Shown here: piece by piece, positions 163 through 27,596 of the stretch | Numbering within the stretch: the stretch's first letter is position 1 | How the letters are laid out: the number at the start of each line of letters is the position of its first letter | Source of the DNA: an uncultured Pseudomonadota bacterium | GTDB lineage: Bacteria > Babelota > Babeliae > Babelales > RVW-14 | Direction of reading: 5' to 3' | Length of the DNA: 64,000 nucleotides | NCBI GenBank assembly: GCA_964534555.1 | Contig: CAZHRK010000003.1 | Span: forward strand, 72,627-136,626 | Notes under the pieces: generated by a model | What the model was told of the DNA's origin: nothing | What the model saw: only the letters and a program-made list of their open reading frames with translations | Databases searched by the model: none | Position numbers and translations under genes: made by a program

Positions 163-3100
163 TTATTGTGTCGCTAGAGTTTTTGCTTGATCTGCAGAAA
201 TCAGTTTTGTTTTCTGTGCAGCATCACTAATGATTTTCTTTAACTCAGCCAGACGTTTTGTATCAACTGTTTTAATTCTTTCTATTGTTTCACTCAGGGC
301 CTTGCTTGCAATAGCCTGAGCATTCGCATCAAGTCCCTTGGCAACAGCCCATGTTGCAAGGCCTTGTGTAGCTTTAATAATATCATCAGCCGTTTGTGCT
401 CGTTTTATCTTGCTAATATTATCTGTTAGCCCTTGCATGATAACAGCAGATGTCGATACGCCTGCAGCTCTGCTTGGTTTTGCCGCACTGGTATCTATTT
501 TAACAACACGGCGGCTTACAGGACGCTGGCTTTGCTCATCAACAACTTTTGGTGCACTGCGTACTGCACTTATTGCTTGTGTTGCACTTGGGCGTGCTAG
601 CGGTTGTATCGCAGCAGTTGTTGAGGTAGCAGTTTCTTTGCTGATTACATTTTTAGTTTGAGCTGTTTTAATAACCTGCATTACAGCGTTTACTTTAGCA
701 AGGTCTCCCTGCTTTAGTTGTTTGCTGAGCGCATTAATACGCGTTTCAATTTGTGCTTTTTCTTCTGGGCTTAATGAGCTTGCATTAGGTGCATTAAGGA
801 GTTTTGTTAATGCATCGATTTCTTCCCATACAGGGTCGGTTGGTTTTTGTGGTGCTTGTTGTGCTGGGCCTGCTTTAGTAATCTCGGCTTTCATAGCTGC
901 TGCTTCACTTGCGCTGAGTGTTCCTGTCGCAACCAGTATGTCAATCGTTGCAAGAAGCTCATCGCGATCGGATGCACTTAATGTTTTTACGCTGCGAATG
1001 GTATCATTTAACGCATCCACAACTTCTTGTTTTTCTTTACCAGCAAGTGGTGCCTTGAGCTTCTGGCCCATTCCTTTTAGCAATTTTATACGACGTGATT
1101 TATTTGTCGTTTTCTTCATTTTGCTAATATTGCCTGGTGTTGGCTCTGTTTCTTCTTCTTTAATTAATCCGCCTGAACGAGGCTGATTGCCGGCTGATAA
1201 ATCATTAATATCAGTATCAGTTAACCCTGCAAGGCCTTTAGTCGTTATTATTTTTTGGCCGCGGGCTTTTTTAATAAGGCCGCCAAGGCGTTTTTTCTCT
1301 TCGATTGTTAGATCAGATTCATCTGCAATAACTGAAGCAAGAAGCTCATCAAGTGCTGCTTGTGTTGCGGCATCTGGTACTTTGCCCCCAAGCTTGTTAA
1401 TAAATGTTTCAAGAGCTGTAAGCTTGTTTTGCGGCGTTGCTGAGTCTTGTGTTTTTTTGATGTTTTCTGCTGTTGGCTCAGATGCTTGGCGTAGCGCTTC
1501 ATTAATCAACGGTGTTACTTTTGATGACAATGATACTTTTTGATCTTTGTTTAAAAGGCCTGTGTTGGTTGCTTTTTGTATGATTTCATTTAGCTCACTA
1601 AGGCTACCAGCATCAGCACCAAGATTGTCTTTAACGATTGTTTCGAGTAAGGTGCTAAAAGATTTTTGCACATCAGCGTCAATTACCCCTGTGCCTGCAC
1701 GTTTAATAAGGTCTTTGATTTTTTGTTTTTTAACAACAGGATCAGTTTCGTTATTAATATCATCAATATCAGCTTGACTAACTTTCGCTGCGGTGCCAGC
1801 TTGGCCAGAAGATTTAGCGCCCTTAGGCTTACCGCCCGTTGCAATCGCTTCATCGAGTGAGGAATCAATATCATCAATAGTTGAAGCTTTACCAGGTGGG
1901 ATGATACCAGTCTTCTTAGCTTTTTTAACGATGTTGCTTAGTGTTTTAATAGTCTCAGGATCCATGTCTTGGCCCTGAGCAGCAAGGTCAGCAAGTGCAT
2001 CTGCAAGTTCGTTTTGTTCCTCAGGAGAGAGGGCGCCGGTAGCGGCTTTATCAACAAGGGCTTGTAGCTTTTTGACCTTGTCTTTAACTGAGCCCTTAGC
2101 GTTTTTGATAGCTTTAATATTGTCTGCGGTTGGCTCAGTAGGAAGCGTATCAATCACATCAGCGTCAGCTTTAGCTTTAGTGATTTTAACTTTGATAGTT
2201 TTATTAACATACTCTTTTTGCGCATCGCTTAGCGCGCCGCTGTCATCAGCGTCTTGTAGAAGCTGCTCAAAAGCAATAAGTTCATCTTTGCTCATCTTAT
2301 CAATGTTTTTAGACATTTTATCGATCTGAGCAGCGATAGCGTTTTTAGTAGCAGCATCAAGATTTTTATCTTTAGCTTTACCGATGATATTTTTCAGAAT
2401 AGCGATTTGCTCTGTTGTTGGTGCAGCATCAGCTTTTTTGACATCGTCCTGAGCTTTTTTGTTTTCAGCAGGGGTGGCAGGAGTTGTCGGTGTTTTACCT
2501 TTAGTGCCAGCTTGGCCAGAAGATTTAGCGCCCTTAGGCTTACCACCTGTTGCAATCGCTTCATCGAGTGAGGAATCAATATCATCAATAGTTGAAGCTT
2601 TACCAGGTGGGATGATACCAGTCTTCTTAGCTTTTTTAACGATGTTGCTTAGTGTTTTAATAGTCTCAGGATCCATGTCTTGGCCCTGAGCAGCAAGGTC
2701 AGCAAGTGCATCTGCAAGTTCGTTTTGTTCCTCAGGAGAGAGGGCGCCGGTAGCGGCTTTATCAACAAGGGCTTGTAGCTTTTTGACCTTGTCTTTAACT
2801 GAGCCCTTAGCGTTTTTGATAGCTTTAATATTGTCTGCGGTTGGCTCAGTAGGAAGCGTATCAATCACATCAGCGTCAGCTTTAGCTTTAGTGATTTTAA
2901 CTTTGATAGTTTTATTAACATACTCTTTTTGCGCATCGCTTAGCGCGCCGCTGTCATCAGCGTCTTGTAGAAGCTGCTCAAAAGCAATAAGTTCATCTTT
3001 GCTCATCTTATCAATGTTTTTAGACATTTTATCGATCTGAGCAGCGATAGCGTTTTTAGTAGCAGCATCAAGATTTTTATCTTTAGCTTTACCGATGATA

Positions 3101-6100
3101 TTTTTCAGAATAGCGATTTGCTCTGTTGTTGGTGCAGCATCAGCTTTTTTGACATCGTCCTGAGCTTTTTTGTTTTCAGCAGGGGTGGCAGGAGTTGTCG
3201 GTGTTTTACCTTTAGTGCCAGCTTGGCCAGAAGATTTAGCGCCCTTAGGCTTACCACCTGTTGCAATCGCTTCATCGAGTGAGGAATCAATATCATCAAT
3301 AGTTGAAGCTTTACCAGGTGGGATGATACCAGTCTTCTTAGCTTTTTTAACGATGTTGCTTAGTGTTTTAATAGTCTCAGGATCCATGTCTTGGCCCTGA
3401 GCAGCAAGGTCAGCAAGTGCATCTGCAAGTTCGTTTTGTTCCTCAGGAGAGAGGGCGCCGGTAGCGGCTTTATCAACAAGGGCTTGTAGCTTTTTGACCT
3501 TGTCTTTAACTGAGCCCTTAGCGTTTTTGATAGCTTTAATATTGTCTGCGGTTGGCTCAGTAGGAAGCGCGGAGATATCTTCTGTTGTTACGCCTTGCTG
3601 CTGTTTACCCTTGCCACCTTTTTTGCCAGGGGAGCTTGCGCTCCCCTTTGCATCTTTAGCCTGGCTTGGTTGTTGTCCGCTATCGTTTGATGGGCTGCTT
3701 ACTTGCGGGCTGCTTTTTTGCTGGTTGGGGTTTTGATTGCTGGACTTTTTTTTTTCGCCCCCTGTTTTGGAGCCCGTCTTTGCTGTTGTTGTGTCTGTTG
3801 GCGTTGTGCTATCAGGAGCTTGCGGTTTGCTTGTGCCTGATGCTGGAGTTGTAGTTTTGCCTTTTGCTGGCTTAGCTTGTTTTTCTTGTTTTTTAGCTGC
3901 TGGCGCAGATGTTTGTTGTCCGCCTGTTGATGCTGGTGCGCTTGATCCTTTGCCTTGTGCTGCTCTTGATGGATCAAGGTCAAGCAAGATACTCTCAATT
4001 TGTTTGCTCATGCTGCCGCCCAAGCTGCTTGTTTGCGCGCTTGAGATGAATCGTATGATCTCTGCTTTGTCGCTTGCGCTTGCTGATTTACCTTTGGCAG
4101 CCATGTCTCTTAATGCTTTGATAAATGCTTCTTGATCAGCTTTGTTTGTTGAAGCTTTTCCTGCAGTACTTGTAAGCAGTGTCATTTGTGACTTGAGATC
4201 GCTTACTTGTAGAGCATTAAATATCTCTCTTTGAATCGAGCTTTCAACGATGCTGATTCCTTGGTCACTCAGCATTTGTTTAACTTGTTGCTGCTGGATT
4301 GCATTAAGAATAGATATGTTGATACATGATCTTAGGAATGTAATTACGCTATCAGAACGTTTAACAGATTTGTCTGAATCACCATACACAGCTTGTACAA
4401 GTTTGAAGAACAATCCGTACGTAATCTCATCAAAGCGCTGAGAATCAGGAATGATACGTACAATATTACGTGCTAATGAAAGTTGCTGATCACCAAATGC
4501 TGCAAGTGCATTTGAAATACGCTTATCAATATCAATAACATCGCCATACTCTGGAATTATCTGTCTTTGTGCTGCGCTGAGCAGTGGGGTGTCTTCAGCT
4601 GAGACGAGCAAAAACTCAAGGTTTGCAACTACATCAAGAGAAGAGCTTGTCAGCGAGTATGCCTCTGTTCGTGTTGCTACGAGTTGTACAACTGCATTAT
4701 AGAACAGTGTTTGCAGGCGATTGCCAACAACAACAATGTCATCAAACTCTGCCATGATATCAAGCATAGCTTCTATGCGCGCGTTGTAATCGCTAAGAGC
4801 AAGTGCTGCAAGGATCATAACTTCAACGCGTACTGTTATTGCCATTGATTTTGCATAATCTTGTTGAGCCTTGCTCAGGAGGGATGACGTGCTTGCAGCA
4901 TCAAGTACATCAAGGAGCGCTCTATTTGTATCAAGGCTTTCTCCTTCGCGAGCATCAAATGTTGCAACAAGTCCATCTCGTGCAAATAAGTTTTGAACTT
5001 CAGCAGAGAACATGACTGTCTTGGTTGCGCTTACCTGTGCAAGCGCAGCAACGTCACTTAAGATCGCGCTGAACTCTTTAAGTCGTGCGTTGTAATCAGA
5101 AATTGCAATAGCAGATCTGATGCGCGCAAGAAACTTAAGTGAGTTAATTTCGCCTTGAACTGTCGGAAGGCTTACAGACGTAATAACGCCTTTAGCTGAT
5201 TCATTTAAAAGTCCTACTTCTGCAGCATCAGCGCTATCAAGTAATGTTACAAGAATACCAAGCTGGTCAACATCTGTTTTGCTTCGTTTTGTATACACTT
5301 GATTGAGTGCAGTGTTGAAAAGACCTTGAATATTTGCAGCAACGCGCGCTGTTCTGAATGTCGTTAAGATGTCGTTCACTTCGCCAAGCTGCGATGTATA
5401 GTCTTTCATCGCTATTACAGCATTAAGTCTTCGTACGAGGCTGAGGTTTGCAAGTTCACCTTCAACCGTTGGTGTGTATGTTGTTCTAACGGCATCTTGT
5501 GATGCTGAATTAAGAAGAGGTGAGGTGCTTGCTGAGCGCAGGAGCTGGAGCAGCGCTGTAAGTTGTTTTTCATTTGTTGATTGGCGGCCAATAAAACAGC
5601 TATTCAGAACACGCATGAGCGCGCTTGATACATCGCCAACTGTTAGATCAAGATTTGACTGTGCGTATTTAATCACAATATTAAGAGCTGAGCTAATACG
5701 CGCATCAATGTTTCCAATTCTCTCAGCTGCTGCAATTTCCGCTAGTGCTGCGAGTGTAAATAACTCTTTATCAATTTGTGTTGTCCATGTTGTCATTGTT
5801 GCTTTTTGTTCAGCAGTAAACAGTGCCTTGCTTTGCGCCTTAGTGATTGTTGCTTTGATTTTTGTTAATCCATCAATCGTTTTTGTTCTGCTGTCGTATT
5901 GCTTTTTAAGCGCCTCAAAAAGGCTATTACGTGTTGCTTCGTCAACTTGGCTTGGGTCAAGGTCAAGAAGATCATCAATGCTTGCAGGGGCTCCATCTGT
6001 TCCTGTTTTGCCCGTGATGGCATCTTGAATGCGGGCTTTATTGATCTCTTTTTGTAATGTTGGAATCCAATCATCACGCATAATGTCATTTACAAAGCGT

Positions 6101-8088
6101 CCACCATCTTGAACAGCTCTTAGTTGGTTGCTTGAAAGCCAGCTTTGAATTAGATCAAGTAAGTTTTGTAGCGCGGCGGTGTTTGATGCGTCTCGACCAT
6201 TGTACATTTTCTTAAGGCCATCCCAGACATTTTTTGCTTGTTCTGCAGTTAGTGTTTGTCCTGCAACAGGGCGCGGGAAGCCATTTGGATTTTTTGGGTC
6301 TGCGCTTGCAATTTTTGTTAAGAGATCAAGTTCGCGTGCAATTTGTGGTAACCATGTGCCAACAATTGTTGCATGGTGTGTTTGAATAAGTTTGCGTGGT
6401 GTTGACCATAATTCCAGAAGTCCACGTAGGCTCGTTAGGCTATCAATTGATAACGAGTTACGTTTGTCATAACGATCTTTGAGTTGGCTGAAAACCATAT
6501 TAGAAAGCGCAACATCAGCAGGATTGTTTTGATCAAGCGCTGGATTAAATGCCGCACCAGGACCTGCATCAATATCTACAGATCCGCTTTTAACAAGCTG
6601 AAGCTTTGCAATTTCTGCATTAACAGTTGGCACCCATGTGCTGTTTATCGTGCTGTTTTGTCCTGAGGTCAGTTTGCCACTACGTGACCAGCTGGTAAGG
6701 TACGCAACAAGATCTTGGAGGAATTTAATTTTTTCATCGTTACCGGTTAGGCCAGCTACTGCAGCTGTTCTACCATTGTAACGTGCTTGTAGCAGCGCGA
6801 AAATTTGGCTTTGAAGTTGTGGCGTAAGAGGGCTTGGGGTATCCTCTGGTGCTATGTCTCCGCCTGCTCCTGTGCCGCTTCCACCTGTTGAAAGGTCATT
6901 AATCTTTTTTTCTAAAATTGTACCAGCAAGACTGTTGAGCCATGATGCAATTGTTGCGCGCTGTGTTTCTGTTAATTTTCCACCAGAGCTATTGTCATAC
7001 CAATTTTTTAGAATGTCTCGCATTGTCTCTAGCTCAGTGATCGCAAGTGTTGAGGCTGTGCTGTAGTAGTTTGACAAGCTTTGCATGATTTGTCCTTGCA
7101 GGCGCGCTTGATGGCTGACTGCTGAGGATTTACCACTGTCGTCAAGGATAGGTGATGTTGTTACAGAGACAACATCAGTGCATGAGCTAAGTTGTGCTGT
7201 GATTGAGGTTGGTACCGTCACAGAGGTTGTTGTAACTGTTGAAATAATTGGATCAATAAGCTGCTTAAGGCGCGCAAGGAAGATTCGCTGTGTTTCGTTT
7301 GGTACTGTAATGGTTGTTCTTAGCCCACCGAGTGCGCTGATTGTTGTTGCGCTTAAAATGCTTGATTCAAGATCAACAATAGCTATAAATGTTGCGAGTT
7401 GTGATTTGTATGAAGAATCAGTTACAAGTGGTGAGTTAGACGCTGTTGTAAAAATAGCTTTTACAGTAGCAAGTGATGTCAGTGTTGGAATTGTTACGGC
7501 GCCAGTCGATGTGCTACTTACTCGTTGTGCAAATACTTTAAGTAAGTTTGTGTAAAATATTTTTTTAATCGCATCTGTAAACGTTACTGTTGTCGTTGTT
7601 GTAAGGTTTCCAGCTTGTTGCAGTAGCAGTCTAATATTGCTGAGCGTTTGAGTCGTGAACCCAGATGTCCCCATGCTAAATATTTTTGTTTCAATAGAAA
7701 GCATGCTATTCATGCTTTTAATAACATTATCATAGCTACTATTGCTCGACATTGTGTCTTTTTGGATAAGAACAGCAATAATACTATTAAGGTTATCTGC
7801 AGCTGTGCTGCCTGAAGCATCACTTTCAGCGTACGCTGTTATACGGTCTGAAAAGAGCTTAGTGATGGCGCTGTAAACGCTTTCGATATCACTTCCTGCT
7901 ATTGTATCGGCAAAAGTGATCGCTTCGTTTACTTGATTCAGCCTGTCTACGTATGAGCTTGCACCCATAGCAGCGGTGATTTGACTACTCAATGATGCTG
8001 CATGCGCAGAGGAGCACCAAAACAGTGCTGCTGTCATCGCGCAGCTTATTAAGGTTTTGATTCCTGTAATACGTTTAAATAGGCTCAT
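163..8088 (-). CDS. Giant secreted alpha-helical repeat protein (about 2,640 aa), function unknown
   Basis: Uninterrupted ORF 163-8118. The ATG at 8088 (MSLFKRITGIKTLISCAMTAALFWCSSAHA...) follows GGAGACGGAGA and gives a classical signal peptide, so I prefer it to the 8118 start. Composition is Ala/Lys/Thr/Asp-rich with several internal repeat families. Confidence 0.85.
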   Translation of the reverse strand: MSLFKRITGIKTLISCAMTAALFWCSSAHAASLSSQITAAMGASSYVDRLNQVNEAITFADTIAGSDIESVYSAITKLFSDRITAYAESDASGSTAADNLNSIIAVLIQKDTMSSNSSYDNVIKSMNSMLSIETKIFSMGTSGFTTQTLSNIRLLLQQAGNLTTTTTVTFTDAIKKIFYTNLLKVFAQRVSSTSTGAVTIPTLTSLATVKAIFTTASNSPLVTDSSYKSQLATFIAIVDLESSILSATTISALGGLRTTITVPNETQRIFLARLKQLIDPIISTVTTTSVTVPTSITAQLSSCTDVVSVTTSPILDDSGKSSAVSHQARLQGQIMQSLSNYYSTASTLAITELETMRDILKNWYDNSSGGKLTETQRATIASWLNSLAGTILEKKINDLSTGGSGTGAGGDIAPEDTPSPLTPQLQSQIFALLQARYNGRTAAVAGLTGNDEKIKFLQDLVAYLTSWSRSGKLTSGQNSTINSTWVPTVNAEIAKLQLVKSGSVDIDAGPGAAFNPALDQNNPADVALSNMVFSQLKDRYDKRNSLSIDSLTSLRGLLELWSTPRKLIQTHHATIVGTWLPQIARELDLLTKIASADPKNPNGFPRPVAGQTLTAEQAKNVWDGLKKMYNGRDASNTAALQNLLDLIQSWLSSNQLRAVQDGGRFVNDIMRDDWIPTLQKEINKARIQDAITGKTGTDGAPASIDDLLDLDPSQVDEATRNSLFEALKKQYDSRTKTIDGLTKIKATITKAQSKALFTAEQKATMTTWTTQIDKELFTLAALAEIAAAERIGNIDARISSALNIVIKYAQSNLDLTVGDVSSALMRVLNSCFIGRQSTNEKQLTALLQLLRSASTSPLLNSASQDAVRTTYTPTVEGELANLSLVRRLNAVIAMKDYTSQLGEVNDILTTFRTARVAANIQGLFNTALNQVYTKRSKTDVDQLGILVTLLDSADAAEVGLLNESAKGVITSVSLPTVQGEINSLKFLARIRSAIAISDYNARLKEFSAILSDVAALAQVSATKTVMFSAEVQNLFARDGLVATFDAREGESLDTNRALLDVLDAASTSSLLSKAQQDYAKSMAITVRVEVMILAALALSDYNARIEAMLDIMAEFDDIVVVGNRLQTLFYNAVVQLVATRTEAYSLTSSSLDVVANLEFLLVSAEDTPLLSAAQRQIIPEYGDVIDIDKRISNALAAFGDQQLSLARNIVRIIPDSQRFDEITYGLFFKLVQAVYGDSDKSVKRSDSVITFLRSCINISILNAIQQQQVKQMLSDQGISIVESSIQREIFNALQVSDLKSQMTLLTSTAGKASTNKADQEAFIKALRDMAAKGKSASASDKAEIIRFISSAQTSSLGGSMSKQIESILLDLDPSRAAQGKGSSAPASTGGQQTSAPAAKKQEKQAKPAKGKTTTPASGTSKPQAPDSTTPTDTTTAKTGSKTGGEKKKSSNQNPNQQKSSPQVSSPSNDSGQQPSQAKDAKGSASSPGKKGGKGKQQQGVTTEDISALPTEPTADNIKAIKNAKGSVKDKVKKLQALVDKAATGALSPEEQNELADALADLAAQGQDMDPETIKTLSNIVKKAKKTGIIPPGKASTIDDIDSSLDEAIATGGKPKGAKSSGQAGTKGKTPTTPATPAENKKAQDDVKKADAAPTTEQIAILKNIIGKAKDKNLDAATKNAIAAQIDKMSKNIDKMSKDELIAFEQLLQDADDSGALSDAQKEYVNKTIKVKITKAKADADVIDTLPTEPTADNIKAIKNAKGSVKDKVKKLQALVDKAATGALSPEEQNELADALADLAAQGQDMDPETIKTLSNIVKKAKKTGIIPPGKASTIDDIDSSLDEAIATGGKPKGAKSSGQAGTKGKTPTTPATPAENKKAQDDVKKADAAPTTEQIAILKNIIGKAKDKNLDAATKNAIAAQIDKMSKNIDKMSKDELIAFEQLLQDADDSGALSDAQKEYVNKTIKVKITKAKADADVIDTLPTEPTADNIKAIKNAKGSVKDKVKKLQALVDKAATGALSPEEQNELADALADLAAQGQDMDPETIKTLSNIVKKAKKTGIIPPGKASTIDDIDSSLDEAIATGGKPKGAKSSGQAGTAAKVSQADIDDINNETDPVVKKQKIKDLIKRAGTGVIDADVQKSFSTLLETIVKDNLGADAGSLSELNEIIQKATNTGLLNKDQKVSLSSKVTPLINEALRQASEPTAENIKKTQDSATPQNKLTALETFINKLGGKVPDAATQAALDELLASVIADESDLTIEEKKRLGGLIKKARGQKIITTKGLAGLTDTDINDLSAGNQPRSGGLIKEEETEPTPGNISKMKKTTNKSRRIKLLKGMGQKLKAPLAGKEKQEVVDALNDTIRSVKTLSASDRDELLATIDILVATGTLSASEAAAMKAEITKAGPAQQAPQKPTDPVWEEIDALTKLLNAPNASSLSPEEKAQIETRINALSKQLKQGDLAKVNAVMQVIKTAQTKNVISKETATSTTAAIQPLARPSATQAISAVRSAPKVVDEQSQRPVSRRVVKIDTSAAKPSRAAGVSTSAVIMQGLTDNISKIKRAQTADDIIKATQGLATWAVAKGLDANAQAIASKALSETIERIKTVDTKRLAELKKIISDAAQKTKLISADQAKTLATQ
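1793..3569 (-). repeat. 2.5 copies of a near-identical 711-bp in-frame tandem repeat (237 aa per unit) inside the giant gene
   Basis: The anchor gtgccagcttggccagaag occurs at 1793 and 2504, an offset of 711. The right boundary ggaagcg ends at 2858 and 3569. Antisense ORFs in the track repeat identically at 711-bp offsets (1683/2394/3105 and 2072/2783/3494). Confidence 0.95.
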
Positions 8089-8225
8089 TCTCCGTCTCCT
8101 CGGGGCTGAAAACGTCATTATTTAAGATCCAATAAATAGTTACAGAGTGTACGCCTTATGATCAAGAGTTATAAAAGCTCATTTGTTGCACACGCGTACA
8201 CGATGACCTACCCTAGACAAAAAGT

Positions 8226-11277: not shown

Positions 11278-11904
11278 CTATTTTGCGTATCTAATGATGC
11301 TTAGTTTGCTTGTAGCAATTTTAGCTGCATAAACAGAGAGCGTAAGTACCAAGGTGCTTACAAGGCGTTCGTAAGCAACGACAGGAATCAGCCCTATCCA
11401 GAATTCAGGGGTTGTTTGCGTGCTGTATATCCATATAACGCTTCCCACCGCGTGAGCGACAAATGTGGCTTGAAGTGCTTTTGCTAGAATGCTTTCATAA
11501 TTTAATAATGATAATCCTGCAGGAATCAGCCAGTATAATGTGTAAACCCATGCTTCAGCACCGTTGGGGTTGTTTATAAAAAGTGCCATGCACATGAGTG
11601 GGAGCAGTGTGTTGATAACAACTGATGCTGCTCGTGATGATTGATTTGCAGCAAGGCTTAACGCTGCTGCAGCTGTTGGAATGCCGAGCGTTATAGGCAG
11701 GCTGCCAAGTATAATTTTTGCAACCGCTAAAAAACCAAAACTAATAATAAGAGGGCTTATTGCTGTTATTGCTCCAAGCACAGGCAGTAGCAGCGCGCTG
11801 ATGCTGATTTTGTATGCCCCAATACCCAAAAGCTTAATACCACCAACCCAATTCAGGCTCATAATCAGACTTGTAGTGCCAAGTGTTATTAGATACTTTT
11901 TCAT
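11278..11904 (-). CDS. Multi-pass integral membrane protein, function unknown; co-oriented with folA-thyA
   Basis: 208 aa, almost entirely hydrophobic segments. It starts 15 nt after the folA stop and is followed by a hairpin. Confidence 0.6.
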   Translation of the reverse strand: MKKYLITLGTTSLIMSLNWVGGIKLLGIGAYKISISALLLPVLGAITAISPLIISFGFLAVAKIILGSLPITLGIPTAAAALSLAANQSSRAASVVINTLLPLMCMALFINNPNGAEAWVYTLYWLIPAGLSLLNYESILAKALQATFVAHAVGSVIWIYSTQTTPEFWIGLIPVVAYERLVSTLVLTLSVYAAKIATSKLSIIRYAK

Positions 11905-11919
11905 GAATAAAAGTCCTTT

Positions 11920-12405
11920 TTAAGCGTTATTAATTTGTGTCATGTTTTTTCGTGTATAAAGTACGCGTGTGAATTCAGGGTGCTCAATAACTTCTATTGA
12001 TTCCCAGCTAGATGCATCAAATGCGGGAAAAAATACATCACCATCATAATCATGTTTGATATAGCTTATATAAAGCCTGTCTGCTATCGGCAGAAACTGT
12101 TCATACGTATACGCGCCACCAATAATAAAAATGTCTGTTCCATGACTGTATGCTTTATTCAGTGCTTCTTGAGCTGAAGTACAGATCTCAACGCCGCTGA
12201 TAGTAATATTTTCATGACTCAGAACAATATTATGACGGTTGGGAAGCGGGCGTCCAATCGATTGATAGGTTTTAAGACCCATTATGACAGTATGGCCTGT
12301 TGTGAGTGATTTGAAATTTTTTAATTCATCTGGAATGTTCCATGGTAGGTTATTCCCCTTCCCGATGACGCCTTTTGAGGTCATTGCTGTGATGATATAA
12401 ATCAT
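11920..12405 (-). CDS. folA: Dihydrofolate reductase
   Basis: MIYIITAMTSKGVIGKGNNLPWNIPDELKNFKSLTTGHTVIMGLKTYQSIGRPLPNRHNIVLS is the canonical DHFR N-terminus. It overlaps the thyA stop by 4 nt. Confidence 0.9.
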   Translation of the reverse strand: MIYIITAMTSKGVIGKGNNLPWNIPDELKNFKSLTTGHTVIMGLKTYQSIGRPLPNRHNIVLSHENITISGVEICTSAQEALNKAYSHGTDIFIIGGAYTYEQFLPIADRLYISYIKHDYDGDVFFPAFDASSWESIEVIEHPEFTRVLYTRKNMTQINNA

Positions 12406-13268
12406 ACTGCTATCTCAAATTTAATAGTTGGTTGGCTGACGTAATCAATCACTGTTGAATCTTCTGCTTTCCACTCAAAAATAGATGTAAATGGTTCAGT
12501 TACAATGCGAGGGAGCGGGGTGGGGATGCGTTGTATTTGTTCATTTGCCCCTTCTAGGTGATTGATATAAATATGTGCATCAGCTAAAAATCCTATAACT
12601 TTACCCTCTTTGAGGCCAGCTTCTTTTGCAAGCAGATGAAGGAGGAGTGAATAACTTGCAATATTAAAAGGTAATCCGAGCATGATATCAACAGATCGTT
12701 GATTCCATAAAAGATTTAATTTGCTTTCAATCACAGTTAGCTGAAATGCGTAGTGACATGGTGGTAACGCCATCTCATCAAGCGCTAACGGATTCCAAGC
12801 TGATACCAGCATACGCCGACTTGAAGGGTCTGCTTTTAATGTCTGCACAACTTTCTTGAGTTGATCGTACCCTTGATTAATATATTCTTGATCAAACGAG
12901 GTATAGCGCGCTCCAAAATGTCTCCACTGAAAACCATAAATTGGTCCAAGGTCGCGCTCTTCAAGCATTTTTTGCTTCGCCTCTGAGCTGTGGCCATAAG
13001 GAGCTTTTTGTGGGTATGCCCACTCATCCCAGATGTGATTATTTCTTTCTTGAAGCCATTTTTTATCTGTTATTCCTTTGATAAAAAATTCTAGCTCTGA
13101 TGCAACAAGTTTAAAGGGCACTCTTTTTGTTGTGAGCAACGGGAAGCCATTTTCAAGGTCATGCTCAAACATTAACCCAGCAACAGTAAGCGCATCAATA
13201 CTTGTTCTATTGCTTTTGCGTATGCCATAAGCAAGTACATGTCGTACAATATCAAGATATGACTTCAT
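12402..13268 (-). CDS. thyA: Thymidylate synthase (ThyA type)
   Basis: Contains GFPLLTTKRV, DLGPIYGFQWRHFG, and PPCH in LPPCHYAFQ. The ORF extends to a GTG at 13301, but the ATG at 13268 (MKSYLDIV...) matches the usual ThyA N-terminus. Confidence 0.92.
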   Translation of the reverse strand: MKSYLDIVRHVLAYGIRKSNRTSIDALTVAGLMFEHDLENGFPLLTTKRVPFKLVASELEFFIKGITDKKWLQERNNHIWDEWAYPQKAPYGHSSEAKQKMLEERDLGPIYGFQWRHFGARYTSFDQEYINQGYDQLKKVVQTLKADPSSRRMLVSAWNPLALDEMALPPCHYAFQLTVIESKLNLLWNQRSVDIMLGLPFNIASYSLLLHLLAKEAGLKEGKVIGFLADAHIYINHLEGANEQIQRIPTPLPRIVTEPFTSIFEWKAEDSTVIDYVSQPTIKFEIAV

Positions 13269-13385
13269 TGAAAACTCTGTCGCAATAAAGGATTGAAACA
13301 CATTTTACTCTTACTTGTACATTACCATAAAACCACTTGAGCGTAAAAAATTAGCTGCCAGGTATTTCATGTGACAATCTTTTTC

Positions 13386-14654
13386 TCAGCTTAACTCAGG
13401 ATATCCGCATGAGAAGAGTAATGCGCATTCTTTCAGAGCGGTAGTAATTTTTGAAGATTGATAAAGAGTGCGCGCTTTTTCAAATTCAGCTTTTTTTTGA
13501 CTGAGAGCTTCTTCTGAGATAAGACCAGCAAGATATTCTAATCTTTTTTTGTTATATGAGTTTTTATTTTTTAAATAGGTAACTCTTTGTGCTTTCAGAA
13601 AATTTAAGCTTTTCTGAAACTCGTAGTAGTTGTCAGAGACGTTTTGTGCAATCTCAAGCTGAAGTTGTTCGTTTTCTAAGATCTGACGAGTTTTTTCTGC
13701 CTGTGCAGCAAGTTCTTGAAAATAGCTCACAGTGCCATCAAATATATTCCATGATGCCGTGAGCCCAAAGCTATAAGTCCCTTGGTTCTTTTTGAGTTGG
13801 TTTGCCACTGTGGGATAGTGAGAAAATCCAGCATCTGCTTGAGCTGCAATTATTGGTAGACGAGCAGATTGTGTTATTTTTTCACTGAGTTTAAGCGCAT
13901 GTACTTTTTTAATGCTGCTTTTTAAGTCTGGACGGTTTTTAATTGCTTGCTCTTGATACCATGCAAGCGGTTTAATCGTATGCGGCTTTTTTTGTTTCCA
14001 TGTCAGCTTTGTGTTATCAAGTGGCGCTGCAATTAAAAGACTGAGCTTATTGCGCGCAGCTAAATAGTCATGCGCATAATTTTGCACAGAGATAATATCA
14101 TTAGAATAATCACTTATTTGCTCAAGATATGTTTGTTTGTTAATAAGTGAAATTTTTCGTTCTCTTTTTGTTTTGTCATAAGTTATAGCAGCTGATTTTT
14201 TTAGTGCATGGGTAAATGCTTGCTGCTGCTGAATGTCATAGTATTCGAGAAATGATTTTTCAACTGCGAATCTGATGGTGTGCGCTTCTCGCTCACGGTA
14301 CCCCTCTTGGATTTCAGCTTCAGTAGTGCCTCTTTCGTATTTTGTTAGTGGCCCAGCATGCTGGAAAATGAGTTGCTGAGCATGGAGTATTGTCGTATTG
14401 CCAAATGAACTTTCTCCCTTATGTTGAGAGAGGTCGCTTGAAATGCTAACTGTCGGCGCATATGCAACAAGCTCGCTTTTTGCTCGAAACTGAGACGCTT
14501 GAATTCCTGCAGCAACTGCTTTAAGGGATGGTCGATTTACAAGGGCGTTTTGTACCGCCTGGTCTATTGTCAGATTATGTGCATGAGTTTGACTCATAGC
14601 TATTATAAAGATACTTAATAAAAAAAAACTATACGCAAGCGATGTCTTCATCAT
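13386..14654 (-). CDS. TolC-family outer-membrane efflux protein
   Basis: Signal peptide, then LTIDQAVQNALVNRPSLKAVAAGIQASQFRAK, the typical OEP-family opening. 422 aa with two coiled-coil-rich halves. Confidence 0.75.
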   Translation of the reverse strand: MMKTSLAYSFFLLSIFIIAMSQTHAHNLTIDQAVQNALVNRPSLKAVAAGIQASQFRAKSELVAYAPTVSISSDLSQHKGESSFGNTTILHAQQLIFQHAGPLTKYERGTTEAEIQEGYREREAHTIRFAVEKSFLEYYDIQQQQAFTHALKKSAAITYDKTKRERKISLINKQTYLEQISDYSNDIISVQNYAHDYLAARNKLSLLIAAPLDNTKLTWKQKKPHTIKPLAWYQEQAIKNRPDLKSSIKKVHALKLSEKITQSARLPIIAAQADAGFSHYPTVANQLKKNQGTYSFGLTASWNIFDGTVSYFQELAAQAEKTRQILENEQLQLEIAQNVSDNYYEFQKSLNFLKAQRVTYLKNKNSYNKKRLEYLAGLISEEALSQKKAEFEKARTLYQSSKITTALKECALLFSCGYPELS

Positions 14655-20615: not shown

Positions 20616-21698
20616 TTAAAGACCAGCAGCTGCAAGGTGTGCAAGATGCGCTGACGCGCGTGCTGATTTATCAGGGTCTTCTGTTTGCGCTTGAAGTACT
20701 AGAAGGTGTGCCTTCAGCTCGTCAATTATTTCATCGTCTACATGGAGTGTAATGTAGTTTCCGACTGTTTCTGCAGTCAAAGAAACTCTTATTTTACCTG
20801 TTGTAATGTGCATCGGGTCTTGTTTGAGTGCTTTTTGAAATGCTGCATGATAAATAGTTGGACGGAAATCTTTTGCAACATCACCGCTCATAGCGATTGT
20901 AAAAACCTTACCATCTCTAAATGATCGTGCAATTGCACCAGTTGTTGGCATAACTACTGAACCATCGCTCTCAATAAGTTGGCGATCAATCGGTGCTGTA
21001 ACACGAACGCAGAAGGTAAAAGTGCCATCTTTACGAATATCAAGGCCAAAGCTTGGTAGAACTGACGGGTATAAGAAGGCTGTTTTAAGAGATTCATTTG
21101 AGCAGAGGTGGTCGCATACATTGTTTTGAGCTATATGGTTAGGAGCAACCTCTCCTCGTTTAGCTCTTTCAGCTCTATCTTCTGTAATAAAACGAATAAT
21201 GTTTACAGGGCTACGATCATTAACGCGTGCATGCAAGTCGAAAATGATTGTGTCATTATTTATAAAATTCGAAACAGGATCACCAGAAAACAGCTCAGGT
21301 GCAAATCTAAATGGCCACTGAGCAAGCGCTCTAGTTTTTGTTGTTGAGTGTACAATTCCTCTGCCCCCAGGTGTTGCTTGAAGGTTGTTGGTATGACTGT
21401 CTGGGCGCTCCGGAGTGTGGTAGTGTACAACTTTAGCTGATCGCGGTGGGGTGCTAGCAGGTGCAGCACTTATAGAAGGTGATAAAACTTTTGTTGTTGG
21501 GGCACCAAGCGCAGCAAGGACATCATCTGGAATTAAAGAATCTGCTCGAGGCGATGCGCTAGCACCGGCGCCACCTCTTAGTGGTGATGCTGTATGCTCT
21601 GAAACTGATGATCTGCGTGTTCTGGGTGGAGTTGCTGTTGATGCAGCATTACTATCAAGTACAGCGGCAACTGTTATGAGTATGAGTGTTTTCAGCAT
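20616..21698 (-). CDS. Secreted protein, paralog A (disordered Pro/Ser/Arg-rich N-region plus a conserved domain of about 250 aa), unknown function
   Basis: The ATG at 21698 follows AGGAAATCAC and gives the signal peptide MLKTLILITVAAVLDSNA. It shares ATPGGRGIVH and TIYHAAFQK blocks with the next gene. The ORF maximum is 21746. Confidence 0.75.
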   Translation of the reverse strand: MLKTLILITVAAVLDSNAASTATPPRTRRSSVSEHTASPLRGGAGASASPRADSLIPDDVLAALGAPTTKVLSPSISAAPASTPPRSAKVVHYHTPERPDSHTNNLQATPGGRGIVHSTTKTRALAQWPFRFAPELFSGDPVSNFINNDTIIFDLHARVNDRSPVNIIRFITEDRAERAKRGEVAPNHIAQNNVCDHLCSNESLKTAFLYPSVLPSFGLDIRKDGTFTFCVRVTAPIDRQLIESDGSVVMPTTGAIARSFRDGKVFTIAMSGDVAKDFRPTIYHAAFQKALKQDPMHITTGKIRVSLTAETVGNYITLHVDDEIIDELKAHLLVLQAQTEDPDKSARASAHLAHLAAAGL

Positions 21699-21758
21699 GT
21701 GATTTCCTATAAGGGCTTGTAATTTTATTTCGATTTTAATGAGCATGGGGCGAGTATT

Positions 21759-22829
21759 TTAGGCTGTAATCAGCGTATCGATAACAGCCGAAAGCTCAAC
21801 TGCATCAGCATATTCTTGATGTGAAGAGTCGGCAGCGATTACATCGACTCGTGCTTTTAGATCGGCCAGAGCAGAAGCACCAACAGTGTATGTAATTTTC
21901 TTGTAGGATGATCCATCTGGATTGTTGGCATCAACTGCAGAAAGGTTAATATCCTTTGTTTCAATCTCAAATGTCCATGCCCCAAATGATTTTTGAAATG
22001 CTGCATGATAAATAGTAGACAATTCACAGCTAGGAACCGCTTCAGATCGTACTGCAATAGTAAAAAGCTCTGATTTACTAAATGAGTTTCCAATTTTGCC
22101 GCCAGGCGTACGTGTTGCAGGGTCTCCAATTTTTACGACTGCTTCACGATTTATAGTTGCTGTAATGCGGATATACGTGAAAATATTGCCGGTCTTATGA
22201 TCTTTTTTTATACCAAAGGCGATTTTGCGTGATGGGTATATTACAGCAGCTTTTAAAAGTTGCTGTGAGCATATATGGTCATAAATATCTGATGATGCAT
22301 AAAATGGGTCTTTATTTTTGCTTTGGGGTGTCAGACCGCTTTTACGGCGATCATTTGCAATCATAGCGACTATTTTATCGCTAAGATTGTTTTCAACACG
22401 CTTTGCAAGATCAAAAACAACATCTTTGTTCATAATAAAGCTCGTATTAGCGCCGTCTTCAAAAAGCTCTTCATCCCATGCATAGCATTGATCACTAAGC
22501 GTTGATGTTTTTTGGATTATATGGATAATTGAGCGACCACCAGGTGTTGCTTTATGAGGGATAGTAGCTTTTTCATCGCGCATAGGCGTGCGCTTTGTTG
22601 GCGCCTCTTCGGCTGCTTTTATGTTTTGATGGGTTGGTGTTCCATACTTGCTTGGGCTGCCGAGTATTCTGCGTAACGGTGTTTCTTCTCTCGGACGAGT
22701 TGAGCGTGCTGGGCTTGCATAAGAAGCATCAGTAGTACCAGCGTTTTCAGTTTCAGGCTTTACGCTTGGGCTTTCTGCCCCAAAAAGCGGAGTAAAAACA
22801 AGAGTCATTATAAGAAGAGGAATATGCAT
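21759..22829 (-). CDS. Secreted protein, paralog B of the 20616 gene, unknown function
   Basis: Signal peptide MHIPLLIMTLVFTPLFGAES from the ATG at 22829 (ORF maximum 22871, GTG). Collinear with paralog A: ATPGGRSIIH, DHICS vs DHLCS, TIYHAAFQK. Confidence 0.75.
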   Translation of the reverse strand: MHIPLLIMTLVFTPLFGAESPSVKPETENAGTTDASYASPARSTRPREETPLRRILGSPSKYGTPTHQNIKAAEEAPTKRTPMRDEKATIPHKATPGGRSIIHIIQKTSTLSDQCYAWDEELFEDGANTSFIMNKDVVFDLAKRVENNLSDKIVAMIANDRRKSGLTPQSKNKDPFYASSDIYDHICSQQLLKAAVIYPSRKIAFGIKKDHKTGNIFTYIRITATINREAVVKIGDPATRTPGGKIGNSFSKSELFTIAVRSEAVPSCELSTIYHAAFQKSFGAWTFEIETKDINLSAVDANNPDGSSYKKITYTVGASALADLKARVDVIAADSSHQEYADAVELSAVIDTLITA

Positions 22830-22942
22830 TGCTAATAAGCCTTTCGTAAGACAATCTTTAAAGTGCCCCACTGAGCCTGAGAAAAGCTTGAGGGGGGCAC
22901 CATTATAGAGATTCTATCGATATTAGCAACCGTTACCAGGCC

Positions 22943-25900
22943 TTAGAACAGGTCTTTTAGCTTAGAAACAAGGCTTTTTGATGCTTTAATTAAAAGATCA
23001 TCTAAATCGTTAACATTTGCTTCGATTCTAATAGAAAAGTCTTTGCCACCAATAACACCTTCAATTATTGATATTGGCATTTTGCCTTGGACAACCGCCT
23101 TAAGGCTTTCAATTTCTATTCGAATTTTATTGATAGTGAAGACGTTTACTGCTCGCAGGCCAAAATCAAGGACTTTTGAGCTTACGCCAGTTGCTTTTTC
23201 TGCTGCATACAAGCTACCTTTTGCCAGCGTTAGAGCCGCGTCAGCTGTTTTTTGTGCTGCTATCAGAGCGGCTAGCTCAGCACGCTCATCAGCTGTTGTT
23301 TTATCAAGGACTTCTTTTTGTACAACCTTGCCTGCAGATTTGCCTGTATCAACCACCGAGTCAACGGCATCTTTGCCTGTATCAACCACTGAATCAAGGG
23401 TGTTTTTGCCTGTATCAACAACAGAGCTACCGATACTTTTTGCTTTATCTACTACTTTATTAAAAACGCCCCATGCATAGAGTTTATGTGGTTTTTGATT
23501 TGTCAAAAGTGTATCTAAATCAAATCGAGCATCAGTATTAGTTGCTATTTTACGTCTGAGTTCTGCTATACGTACGTCAAGCCTATCAAGATCCTTCTGA
23601 GCGCTTTCAACTTTTGATCGAGCGTCTCGAATAGATGCCCCAGCTTGATCAAGCTCACCGCGTATTTGTTTTCTGAAGCGCTCAATAAATGCTGCATCAA
23701 ATCCTGATGCGATTTCTCCTGATAATCTGAAGTCTATATTTTTAACACGCGCTACATCGTCAATACTATCCATTTCAGTTGGAAGGTTGACCGCAGATCC
23801 CTCAAATGTTGCTCTAAAAGGACCAAACAACGTGCGCACGGTTTTGAAGCTAAGCTTGTCCCCGCTAAAGAAAAGATCTGTTTGGCTTACAGATCCCAGA
23901 AGTTCTGCAAGCCCAGTGAAGGTGATGATTTGTCTGTCTTTGGTTAGTGTTAGTTCAAATGCTGCGCCATCATCATCTGTTCCGTATTTTTGATCAAGCC
24001 CCGCGCCGGTTAATTTGAGAGGCCCAATATCTATTTTCGGAATTGTTCCATTCATACTAAAGCCGCTGTCACTTACAACTATTTGTGCTTTACCATCTCC
24101 CACAAATGGCAGTGCAACAAGAGCATTCATTCTTAATCCAGGCGCAAGCACTGGTTTCTTTAATGATGTACCTTTGAGCCCAACAGTAAATTCAGCTGCT
24201 TTAATCCCCATGTTCGGTAATCTTAACGTTGGCATATCAAGGCCCGATTTTGTGGCAAATGCAATTACATCTTTAAGCGTTAGTCTCTCCGCGCGCATTG
24301 ATGTGTAGAGCAGAAAGCCTTCTTTGCTTAGTTTTACATCTGTTTGGCTTGAAACTCCAAATAGCTGTACCAACCCAGACATAAGAAAGCGTTGTTCTTC
24401 TTTTGTTAATTTAATATCAACAATCGCTCCATCATCAGCTGTTCCATATGCGCCGTCTTCTCCCATGCCTGTTATAAGCACTGGGCCGCACTCTATTTTG
24501 CTTAATTTACCTTTTGCGCTAATTCCATTATCGCGCACGAGTAGTTCTACAAGAGCAAATTCATCAAGCACCTGGACTTTACCTTTCATGGTAATCCCAG
24601 GATCGAGTCTGAAGGTTTTGAATTTTTCACCCTTCATACCAACGGTGTATTCAACATCGCTTAATCCAAGGTCGGGTAGTGCATCAGGTGGTAGCGTGAG
24701 TCCTGTTTTGTTTGCAGCAGCAATAATGTCTTTTAAATTAATGCGATCAATTTTGAGCGATGATAAGAATTCAAAGCCTTCTTTTCCTAGGTACACTTCT
24801 GTTTGTGCTGAGCTTCCAAATATTTTAATTAACCCCGAAATTAAGACATGCTGCTTTGTTGGCGTAAGCGCAAAACTAACAACTGGTCCATCATCAGGTG
24901 TGCCGTATGTTTTATCTAACCCTTTTCCTGTTATCAGTACTGGGCCTAGCTCTAGTTGGGATATTGTGCCCTCTGCTATTATGCCGCCTATATCAACATT
25001 AACGTTAATAGTTGCTTTTTCATCAAGTACTTCCATAGAGCCTTTGAACGTTAGGCCTGGGTCGAATTGAATCTCTCCAATCGATCCACCAGTTGGTGCA
25101 AATTTTACTTCAACATCATGAAAGCCAAAGTTTGGAACTTTTTCTATTGCGATATTTGCGCCTGCGCTTCTTGCAAGGCTTGCAAGGTCAGATAAGAAAA
25201 GTCGGTTGATACTGCCATACATAATCAGGTCTTGAAGATTTGCAGTGACCAGCGTTCCTACGCGTGCTTTGATATCACCTACTTGTACAGCGCCAGTAAG
25301 ACCGAATTTAGTCGGTAAACCAGTAGCAGAGAAGACCGCGTAGTCTATACCAGCTTCTACCGCCACATCAGATATAGCAAAGCCTTTGATGCCCATAGGG
25401 TTGTGCCAATCTCCCTTCATTGTGCCTGAGAGCGATGCGCTATCTGGCTCAACTTTTACTCGGCCATAGAGTCCCAGGGGCTCGTCTTTATCAGATGGGA
25501 TAACAGTGATTTTTGTTATGAGAGAGAGCTTCGGGCCACTTCCGTCAAATTCAAAAATGAGGTTATCAAGTGTTGCCTTTTTACCCAGGCGTACTTGCGC
25601 AGGGATATTTGCTTGAAGCTTAAGGTCTCTGATGCTCCTGCCAACCGACATAACGGTATAAACTTCTTTAGGTGCATCAGGGACTAAATTGCTTACACCA
25701 GCAAAGACACCACCGGTTGTAGGCATTTTTAGGACAATTGAGACGCCCTGAGGGATATCAATTTTTAATGCTGGGTCGGTGTAGGCTTTTGATGCAGCGA
25801 TGATACTTGCGCGTGAGAAGTCGATTTTATCAATATCTGTTCCTGCTGCATCAGGAATAGAGTCAGATACTTTCCAGCCAGCTTTAATACCGCCCTTAAG

Positions 25901-27523: not shown

Positions 27524-27596
27524 TCCCACCCCTTTTGAGAAAATTATTCTCAAGTGTTAAATGGCGGGTGCGAATGATTCAATAGTTTGATGAAAT

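Follow-up and report, generated by a model that had tools for sequence, protein, structure and literature searches.

The beta-belt of apolipoprotein B100 (ApoB100) is a continuous amphipathic sheet of 120 strands with a mean length of 11 residues. In Chromulinavorax, a cultured member of the Dependentiae, 44% of the coding sequences (CDS) carry signal peptides, most of them with no known function, and no lipid biosynthesis was found; the use of host lipids was proposed (PMC6561590). Obligate intracellular Dependentiae are thought to be dependent on host lipids (PMC6561590). Here we describe a large gene on the minus strand of a 64,000-nucleotide stretch of contig CAZHRK010000003.1 (assembly GCA_964534555.1, forward-strand positions 72,627 to 136,626), which is referred to below as the window. 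The window is from a Dependentiae (TM6/Babeliales) bacterium; its GC content is ~41% and its LepA is up to 84% identical to homologues in Dependentiae/TM6/Babeliales metagenome-assembled genomes (MAGs). An initial annotation, made from the DNA sequence, had reported the gene product as a beta-rich protein with three 154-amino-acid (aa) repeats. Our analysis has shown that this feature is real and was described correctly in the main, and that the protein is one three-module member of a large undescribed family. Its body is predicted to form an extended amphipathic sheet.

Repeat units and layout of the protein

Three tandem units of ~154 aa (R1 to R3) occupy residues 790-944, 945-1097 and 1098-1251. 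This was confirmed by BLASTP local alignments of the units, in which R1-R2, R1-R3 and R2-R3 were 45.7, 32.8 and 41.3% identical, with E = 2.7e-47, 1.6e-19 and 3.2e-27, respectively; the spacing of the shared motif is 153 and 154 aa. Judged from these alignments, the units are a true internal duplication and not a chance similarity. The DNA of the units aligns only over short stretches and the duplication is therefore old. The parts of the protein, and the hairpin that precedes its gene, are located in the window as follows:

27599..27628, minus strand: terminator-like hairpin (12 bp, 7 GC) with a T-run, between the upstream 87-aa gene and the large gene
27443..27523, minus strand: hydrophobic N-terminus, residues 1-27, MLILILFLWVIHTSVNIAALQSATVIA; putative Sec signal peptide or signal anchor
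27311..27442, minus strand: Ser/Thr/Pro/Lys-rich low-complexity linker, residues 28-71
26117..27310, minus strand: N-terminal beta region, residues 72-469; kept only in a subset of relatives (covered by 14-55 of 151 HMMER hits)
25157..26116, minus strand: family-wide conserved beta core, residues 470-789; covered by 80-148 of the 151 hits; AlphaFold2 pLDDT (predicted score in the local distance difference test) ~85-95
24692..25156, minus strand: repeat R1, residues 790-944; ~11-12 strands and the closing helix LKDIIAAANKTGL; pLDDT 91-97
24887..24946, minus strand: acidic loop 1, GPVLITGKGLDKTYGTPDDG, residues 860-879; ordered between two strands, pLDDT ~94-96
24233..24691, minus strand: repeat R2, residues 945-1097; 45.7% identity to R1; reuses positions 686-837 of the family hidden Markov model (HMM)
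24428..24487, minus strand: acidic loop 2, GPVLITGMGEDGAYGTADDG, residues 1013-1032; motif match
23771..24232, minus strand: repeat R3, residues 1098-1251; without the closing KD(I/V)IA helix; the family HMM runs on from here to the C-terminus
23966..24025, minus strand: acidic loop 3, GPLKLTGAGLDQKYGTDDDG, residues 1167-1186; motif match
23144..23695, minus strand: amphipathic helical insert, residues 1277-1460; five long helices and one 7-residue helix; AlphaFold2 pLDDT 40-75
22946..23143, minus strand: C-terminal return to sheet, residues 1461-1526; three strands, then an amphipathic helix at the very end (AlphaFold2)

The pattern GP...TG.G.D..YGT.DDG starts at residues 860, 1013 and 1167, and all three motif strings quoted in the initial annotation are found in the protein. 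The motif had been called an invariant GP.L.TG.G.D..YGT.DDG; the pattern is indeed present in all three units, but the L varies, with unit 3 reading GPLKLTG. Similarly, a segment of the type (I/L)KD(I/V)IA.A.K(T/S)GL was held to end every unit, which is correct for units 1 and 2 (residues 930 and 1083) but not for unit 3. A helix related to this closing helix, LSDLASLARSAG, precedes unit 1. In 182 unit instances from the family, the loop consensus is GP-L-x-I-T-G-x-G-x-D-x-x-Y-G-T-x-D-D-G-P, and the loop is deleted in ~30% of the units. Loss of the motif from orthologues had been named as a possible refutation of the initial annotation; the two positional orthologues P0005 and P0007 (~33% identity) keep the loop as GPLRIDGKGFDRKYGTQDDGP and GPLKLKGAGIDGKYGTEDDGP, and the idea stands on this point. 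The strict core G[TS]xDDG was found in 55 of the 131 proteins that remain when the P0002-like subfamily B members are taken from the 151 HMMER hits, versus 0 of the 20 members of that subfamily. The loop comprises ~15 residues and is ordered between its two strands in the high-confidence model (pLDDT ~94-96). Judged from its composition, cation binding by the acidic loop is plausible.

Outside the units, the 27-residue hydrophobic N-terminus appears to have no clear cleavage site, and the first 60 residues have low values for both hydrophobic moments. Period-2 amphipathicity is present in the N-terminal beta region, of which residues 327-469 were modelled as a beta-meander. The beta-rich character given to the protein is thus upheld by models for residues 327-1270, but for residues 61-326 it is backed only by the period-2 hydrophobic moment. 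The conserved core carries the motifs KPxKPF...IPxLKDI and GTMxGxWxNPxGIKG and is followed by R1, with which the lone unit of most relatives aligns. The C-terminus had been described as a coiled coil. Helices were indeed predicted at residues 1277-1460, but they are followed by three strands and an amphipathic helix, and their periodicity is 3.55-3.75, not 3.5; on the models, a better name for the region is an insert of amphipathic helices in the sheet. Its sequence matches are weak and sub-threshold: the SipB coiled coil, other coiled-coil chains and apolipoprotein A-I chains. The insert also contains three in-register 11-mers of the form SVVDTGKxxxx (SVVDTGKNTLD, SVVDTGKDAVD and SVVDTGKSAGK; residues 1367-1399, window 23327-23425, minus strand). 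Hendecad repeats are typical of amphipathic helices that bind lipid surfaces, such as those of apolipoproteins, perilipins and synuclein. The ending, a strand followed by FxF/D and an amphipathic helix, recurs in distant relatives, including Cohnella and fungal proteins. The terminal Phe pointed out initially is present in the window protein, but it is not a family trait, being found in only 8 of 158 relatives.

Predicted fold and structural neighbours

The initial annotation had proposed structure prediction and a Foldseek search, and both were performed. An AlphaFold2 model of residues 440-950 (core and R1), built on a 41-sequence alignment, reached a pLDDT of 89.4 and a predicted template modelling (TM) score of 0.74. 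In the model, strands of ~10 residues run up and down in an all-beta meander, connected for the most part by 2-residue turns, with a few short helices, and the turns are short on both edges of the sheet. A second model, of residues 327-1526 (pLDDT 73), has 68 strands in total, and in it the meander runs through R2 and R3; the full beta body is estimated to contain ~85 strands. Each repeat adds ~11-12 predicted strands with a short helix, and one well-ordered acidic loop, GxGxDxxYGTxDDGP. The helical insert leaves the predicted sheet just before its last three strands. Mean Kyte-Doolittle values of the strand faces were +2.26 versus -0.82. Based on these models, we predict that the body is an extended amphipathic antiparallel sheet with one apolar face and one polar or charged face.

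Foldseek searches of the PDB returned ApoB100 (9ea7, 9e9r and 9coo) as the only matches at E <= 1e-3 for both models. The core model matched it with E of 2.4e-4 to 4.3e-4 and a probability of 0.98-0.99, and the long model with E 1.6e-10 and a probability of 1.00 over 1,605 alignment columns. Beta-barrels came next (PapC, LptD, SlpA, VDAC and Tom40; E 1e-2 to 3e-1, TM <= 0.25). Repeating beta-groove (RBG) proteins of the TamB/VPS13 type were not among the top 50 PDB matches of either model, and a search of the viral database BFVD gave only tail-fibre-like matches with low TM-scores. The match to ApoB100 supports shared architecture, not homology.

Family, gene neighbourhood and start site

Searches of Pfam, NCBIfam, PADLOC and PDB sequences with the whole protein or single repeats gave no match other than coiled-coil noise; for Pfam and NCBIfam, no family matched at E <= 1 (whole protein) or E <= 10 (pieces). 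A hit of the repeat to a described Pfam or InterPro domain had been named as a second possible refutation, and the Pfam and NCBIfam searches gave none. The reported lack of autotransporter, RTX, Pmp, TamB/AsmA and Big signatures likewise holds in these searches, even at E <= 10. An autotransporter or chlamydial Pmp protein was rejected on further grounds: no Pfam match was obtained, the C-terminus is helical with three strands, and the body is a meander, not a beta-helix. A Big-domain adhesin was also rejected, as the Pfam searches found no Big or other adhesin domain.

The protein is nevertheless no orphan. An exhaustive HMMER search of 1.84 billion representatives, clustered at 50% identity, recovered at least 591 clusters when the threshold was E <= 1e-3, of which 111 reached E <= 1e-30. 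In contrast, a word-indexed search returned just the 96%-identical orthologue and a single fungal protein for the whole protein, and just 6 for the family profile, because the word filter misses the family; a pattern scan of GTDB genomes for the large protein gave no match. The protein is thus a member of a large family undescribed in Pfam (2025) and NCBIfam (2026), whose members are annotated as hypothetical or misnamed TolA or PspA. The full-length family HMM aligns the window protein end to end and uses positions 686-837 three times, and the core common to the family is residues ~470-930, that is, the region before the repeats and repeat 1. Unit copy number was determined in 152 sequences (the 151 HMMER hits and P0002), of which 149 carry the unit: one copy in 128, two in 15, three in 5 and six in 1. 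Three repeats are therefore not a defining feature of the family, since most relatives have a single unit, and the triplication is an elaboration, specific to one lineage, of a module found throughout the family. Changes in copy number have occurred repeatedly among its members.

The canonical member has ~1,100-1,300 aa, in which a signal peptide is followed by the beta-rich body, a single copy of the ~150-aa terminal beta-module, the helical insert and a last beta/helix element. Members with signal peptides are the majority, and an acidic linker often comes next. The Sec signal peptides of relatives appear short, classical and cleavable (for example LSLA|KE and MYA|QT). The syntenic relatives and the only named member of the signal-peptide type (Babeliaceae) are Dependentiae. 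A signal-less type of ~1,200-1,750 aa is found in Cohnella thailandensis, in Aquimarina and Chitinophagaceae MAGs and in the fungus Calocera cornea; a closely related protein from a Spirochaetales MAG, P0094, does have a signal peptide. The protein of the basidiomycete C. cornea (P0002, 1,729 aa) and that of C. thailandensis (P0114, 1,732 aa) are clearly homologous (phmmer E 2.7e-121), and their sequence likeness suggests either horizontal transfer between bacteria and fungi or a contaminated fungal assembly. For the signal-less type, loci from Cohnella and from two metagenomic contigs had no partner genes in common. A PKD domain is present in some of the distant relatives.

In the Dependentiae, the gene neighbourhood is conserved. 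P0001, the 96%-identical orthologue, is on a fully syntenic Logan contig, and P0007 (1,089 aa) and P0005 (1,691 aa) occupy the same locus position at 32-36% identity. The common order in these three loci is the large gene, hypothetical gene(s), rnpA, an M16 peptidase, a GT9 heptosyltransferase and a TolC-like outer-membrane efflux protein (OEP). Since the much diverged P0005 and P0007 lie at the same syntenic position, the gene is old and vertically inherited in the Dependentiae lineage. On L083, another Dependentiae contig, a 904-aa paralogue belonging to this family (11372-14086, plus strand; HMM E 1.5e-68) comes after P0007, and the family thus also expands by tandem gene duplication.

The CDS runs from an ATG at 27523 to a stop codon at 22943-22945 (minus strand) and encodes 1,526 aa, the length given in the initial annotation; read from a TTG at 27553, the open reading frame (ORF) would give 1,536 aa. 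The ATG is likely to be the start of the gene. A sequence resembling a ribosome-binding site, GGGGTGGG (also given as AAAGGGGTGGGA), is found 3-10 nt 5' of it. The family HMM alignment begins at ORF residue 13, which is residue 3 of the protein. The strong terminator-like hairpin at 27599-27628 lies 5' of the large gene and suggests that the gene starts its own transcript.

Just upstream is an 87-aa ORF (27652-27915, minus strand) whose N-terminus resembles a signal peptide and whose tail, ...DGDDDSDDDDDDEIDFD, is extremely acidic; a comparable acidic stretch is fused after the signal peptide in several relatives of the large protein. Directly downstream is a pair of paralogues of 376 and 370 aa (20616-21746 and 21759-22871, both minus strand; 30% identity, E 4e-32) with signal-peptide-like N-termini, Pro/Ser/Thr-rich N-terminal parts and a common TIYHAAFQK motif; neither has a match in Pfam or PADLOC. 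A divergently transcribed gene (28076-29467, plus strand) encodes a 463-aa protein with a signal peptide and the C-terminus ...FKMIFNF, which looks like an outer-membrane beta-barrel; it matched no Pfam family and has no Omp85/POTRA or Bac_surface_Ag domain. A 2,651-aa ORF (163-8118, minus strand) has no significant Pfam domain and was rejected as a paralogue of the large protein (best BLASTP E 0.056). Other genes nearby include argS, lepA, secD, rnpA, and those for the M16 peptidase, the GT9 heptosyltransferase and the TolC-like OEP, and the window further encodes PlsY, an HldE-like protein, FtsW and a Mur ligase. As annotated, these genes indicate a diderm source with lipopolysaccharide (LPS) and peptidoglycan. 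The PlsY-type glycerol-3-phosphate acyltransferase is encoded at 36189-36854 (plus strand); judging by this gene, the genome keeps at least part of phospholipid assembly, unlike Chromulinavorax as reported.

Possible roles and likeness to known systems

Based on these observations, we tentatively favour, at somewhat less than an even chance, the view that the protein is an exported, length-modular amphipathic beta-sheet that binds lipid or another hydrophobic surface in a manner analogous to ApoB, a view drawn only from prediction. The protein would leave the cytoplasm by Sec export, and its apolar sheet face, perhaps with the amphipathic helices, would then cover or carry a hydrophobic surface made of lipid from the bacterium's envelope, from vesicles or from the host. 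The ApoB100 beta-belt, which covers the core of low-density lipoprotein, would be the model for the same way of action. Module duplication may tune the length of the sheet, relatives having 1, 2, 3 or 6 units, and the acidic loops may be sites for divalent cations or for the head-groups of lipids. Such a role fits what is reported of Chromulinavorax, namely a very large Sec-exported proteome and a proposed dependence on host lipids (PMC6561590).

Several points weigh against a lipid-covering role. The Foldseek TM-scores to ApoB100 are just 0.09-0.19, with root-mean-square deviations of 24-69 A. No other open meander in the PDB comes near ApoB100 in length, and because of this any long meander would score best against it. 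A family-profile search of PDB sequences revealed no similarity to ApoB; its chains were not among the best 60 of 138 matches (E <= 1), which reach E 0.4 and for the most part are chains of coiled-coil or otherwise helical type. Model confidence is low for R2, R3 and the helices, and a beta-sandwich, groove or barrel would be expected just as much to have a single amphipathic face. The presence of PlsY in the genome means that the organism is not wholly lipid-dependent, and the gene neighbours are uninformative for the signal-less subfamily (Cohnella, Bacteroidota and a fungus). For every family member the favoured role is a matter of predicted structure.

With this in mind, other roles were considered. 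The protein could serve a structural or adhesive purpose at the cell surface or after secretion, without any lipid role; it would then be built of beta-sandwich modules with structural Ca2+ loops, in which module number sets reach, as in large repetitive adhesins and S-layer proteins. Signal peptides, acidic linkers, varying module number, the PKD domain of some distant relatives and the conserved, ordered Asp-rich loop are all consistent with this, as is the expansion of the family in Dependentiae, with tandem paralogues and paralogues beside ankyrin-repeat effector-like genes. We consider it unlikely, however: Pfam searches found no Ig-like, cadherin, Big or other adhesin domain; Foldseek found no adhesin or S-layer sandwich, the SlpA matches listed being beta-barrels; and members of the signal-less subfamily cannot be surface adhesins. 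Ig-like modules have a Greek-key topology, from which the strict up-and-down meander with 2-residue turns differs. The diderm host, with LPS and peptidoglycan genes nearby (GT9, HldE-like, OEP and FtsW), and the vertical, syntenic inheritance expected of a housekeeping envelope gene would instead suit a bridge-like lipid transporter that spans the periplasm, either an analogue or a divergent relative of the AsmA/TamB/YhdP RBG proteins. Phospholipids would slide along its apolar groove from the inner to the outer membrane, and repeats would lengthen the bridge. The long amphipathic meander would be compatible with this, the 27-residue hydrophobic N-terminus could be an anchor, the helix and Pro-rich linker that close each unit could act as a cross-over element, and the canonical family length is close to that of TamB (1,259 aa). 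Nevertheless, a bridge is unlikely. The AsmA, AsmA_2 and TamB/DUF490 Pfam profiles gave no match even at E <= 10, hhalign of the family profile against E. coli TamB gave a probability of 0.55%, and RBG proteins are missing from the top 50 Foldseek matches given above. An RBG unit consists of five strands and a loop, as opposed to the ~11-12 strands of the units found here. Instead of signal anchors, relatives appear to have short, cleavable signal peptides with an acidic linker behind them, the adjacent 463-aa gene lacks Omp85/POTRA, and the syntenic loci contain no TamA-type gene. Cohnella (Bacillota/Firmicutes) is Gram-positive, and the signal-less subfamily is found there and in a fungus.

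Membrane insertion was also considered. As a toxin or translocon, the protein would rearrange its amphipathic hairpins and helical hairpin into a pore in the host membrane. The amphipathic strands, an intracellular parasitic lifestyle, the solitary subfamily B genes of Cohnella and the fungus, and the weak resemblance of the helices to SipB/IpaB (coiled-coil domain; E 0.005, 17.6 bits versus a cut-off of 31) and to colicin A (E 0.1) point in this direction. The SipB and colicin matches, however, are all below threshold and lie in compositionally biased helices, Foldseek found no known pore-forming fold, and synteny with housekeeping genes is atypical for toxins, which makes this explanation very unlikely. 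Still further down, and already disfavoured, is a giant outer-membrane beta-barrel serving as a secretion pore or porin-like channel. Foldseek does list many barrels (E 1e-2 to 3e-1), the last residue of the window protein is Phe, and its amphipathic strands are ~10 residues long; the TM-scores to barrels, however, do not exceed 0.25, the terminal Phe is rare among relatives, members lacking signal peptides occur in Cohnella (Bacillota) and a fungus, and the ~85 estimated strands are more than in any known barrel. Outer-membrane barrels alternate short turns with long external loops, unlike the sheet predicted here, with short turns at both edges. We regard a barrel as highly improbable.

Returning to the lipid-covering sheet, a bolder version of it would make this the first prokaryotic beta-belt of the ApoB type: length-adjustable exported sheets and helices that wrap, stabilise or ferry lipid in Dependentiae, with the loops as contacts to cations or head-groups and an origin independent of the animal large lipid transfer proteins (LLTPs). 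The cargo would be carried as lipoprotein-like particles, vesicles or patches of host membrane. We consider this version distinctly unlikely, and the literature search returned nothing relevant on bacterial beta-belts or on TamB in Dependentiae. Defining the family, with its 591 or more clusters and its synteny in Dependentiae, in any case names part of the 'dark' secretome of this phylum, and its tandem modules, which occur as 1, 2, 3 and 6 units, provide a naturally occurring series of lengths for structure-function questions. If the sheet does bind lipid, it would be either a counterpart of the ApoB belt in bacteria or, alongside AsmA/TamB, a lipid carrier of a new class, and would bear on how host-dependent bacteria obtain or move lipids. 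If it is merely a structural surface protein, the family would be a routine new domain of unknown function (DUF).

Taken together, these analyses allow the protein to be compared with known systems. The acidic loop, D-x-x-Y-G-T-x-D-D-G, does not have the canonical 1-3-5 spacing of EF-hand, Dx[DN]xDG or dockerin-type DxDxDG loops. Like RTX beta-rolls and other Asp-Gly-rich turns, it is Gly/Asp-rich, ordered and conserved, with GxGxD followed by GTxDDG. In contrast to RTX proteins, the window protein has one GxGxD loop per 154-aa module and no tandem GGxGxDxUx nonapeptides, the loop is missing from a sizeable part of the family's units, and its strict form is absent from the whole signal-less subfamily. 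RTX or haemolysin-type Ca2+-binding repeats were rejected, as there are no tandem nonapeptides and no HemolysinCabind match. The proteins of the AsmA/TamB/YhdP group and the VPS13-type RBG bridges are likewise large and mostly beta, with one apolar sheet face and repeated modules, and AsmA/TamB proteins share the diderm envelope setting and a similar overall length. They differ from the family in that the latter has a C-terminal helical insert in place of DUF490 and, in most relatives, apparently cleavable signal peptides. In comparison with ApoB100, the family is bacterial, Sec-exported and modular by tandem duplication, and the window protein has no Vitellogenin_N or related Pfam match that would mark an LLTP N-terminal domain. 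Its estimated ~85 strands compare with 120 in the belt, and no description of acidic GxGxDxxYGTxDDG loops was found in the passages on ApoB that were read. Like ApoB100, nevertheless, the protein is predicted to form a long up-and-down antiparallel sheet, which may be open, of amphipathic strands of ~10-11 residues with tight turns, and the two would share short inserts between strands and a large amphipathic helical insert about three strands before the C-terminal end of the sheet.

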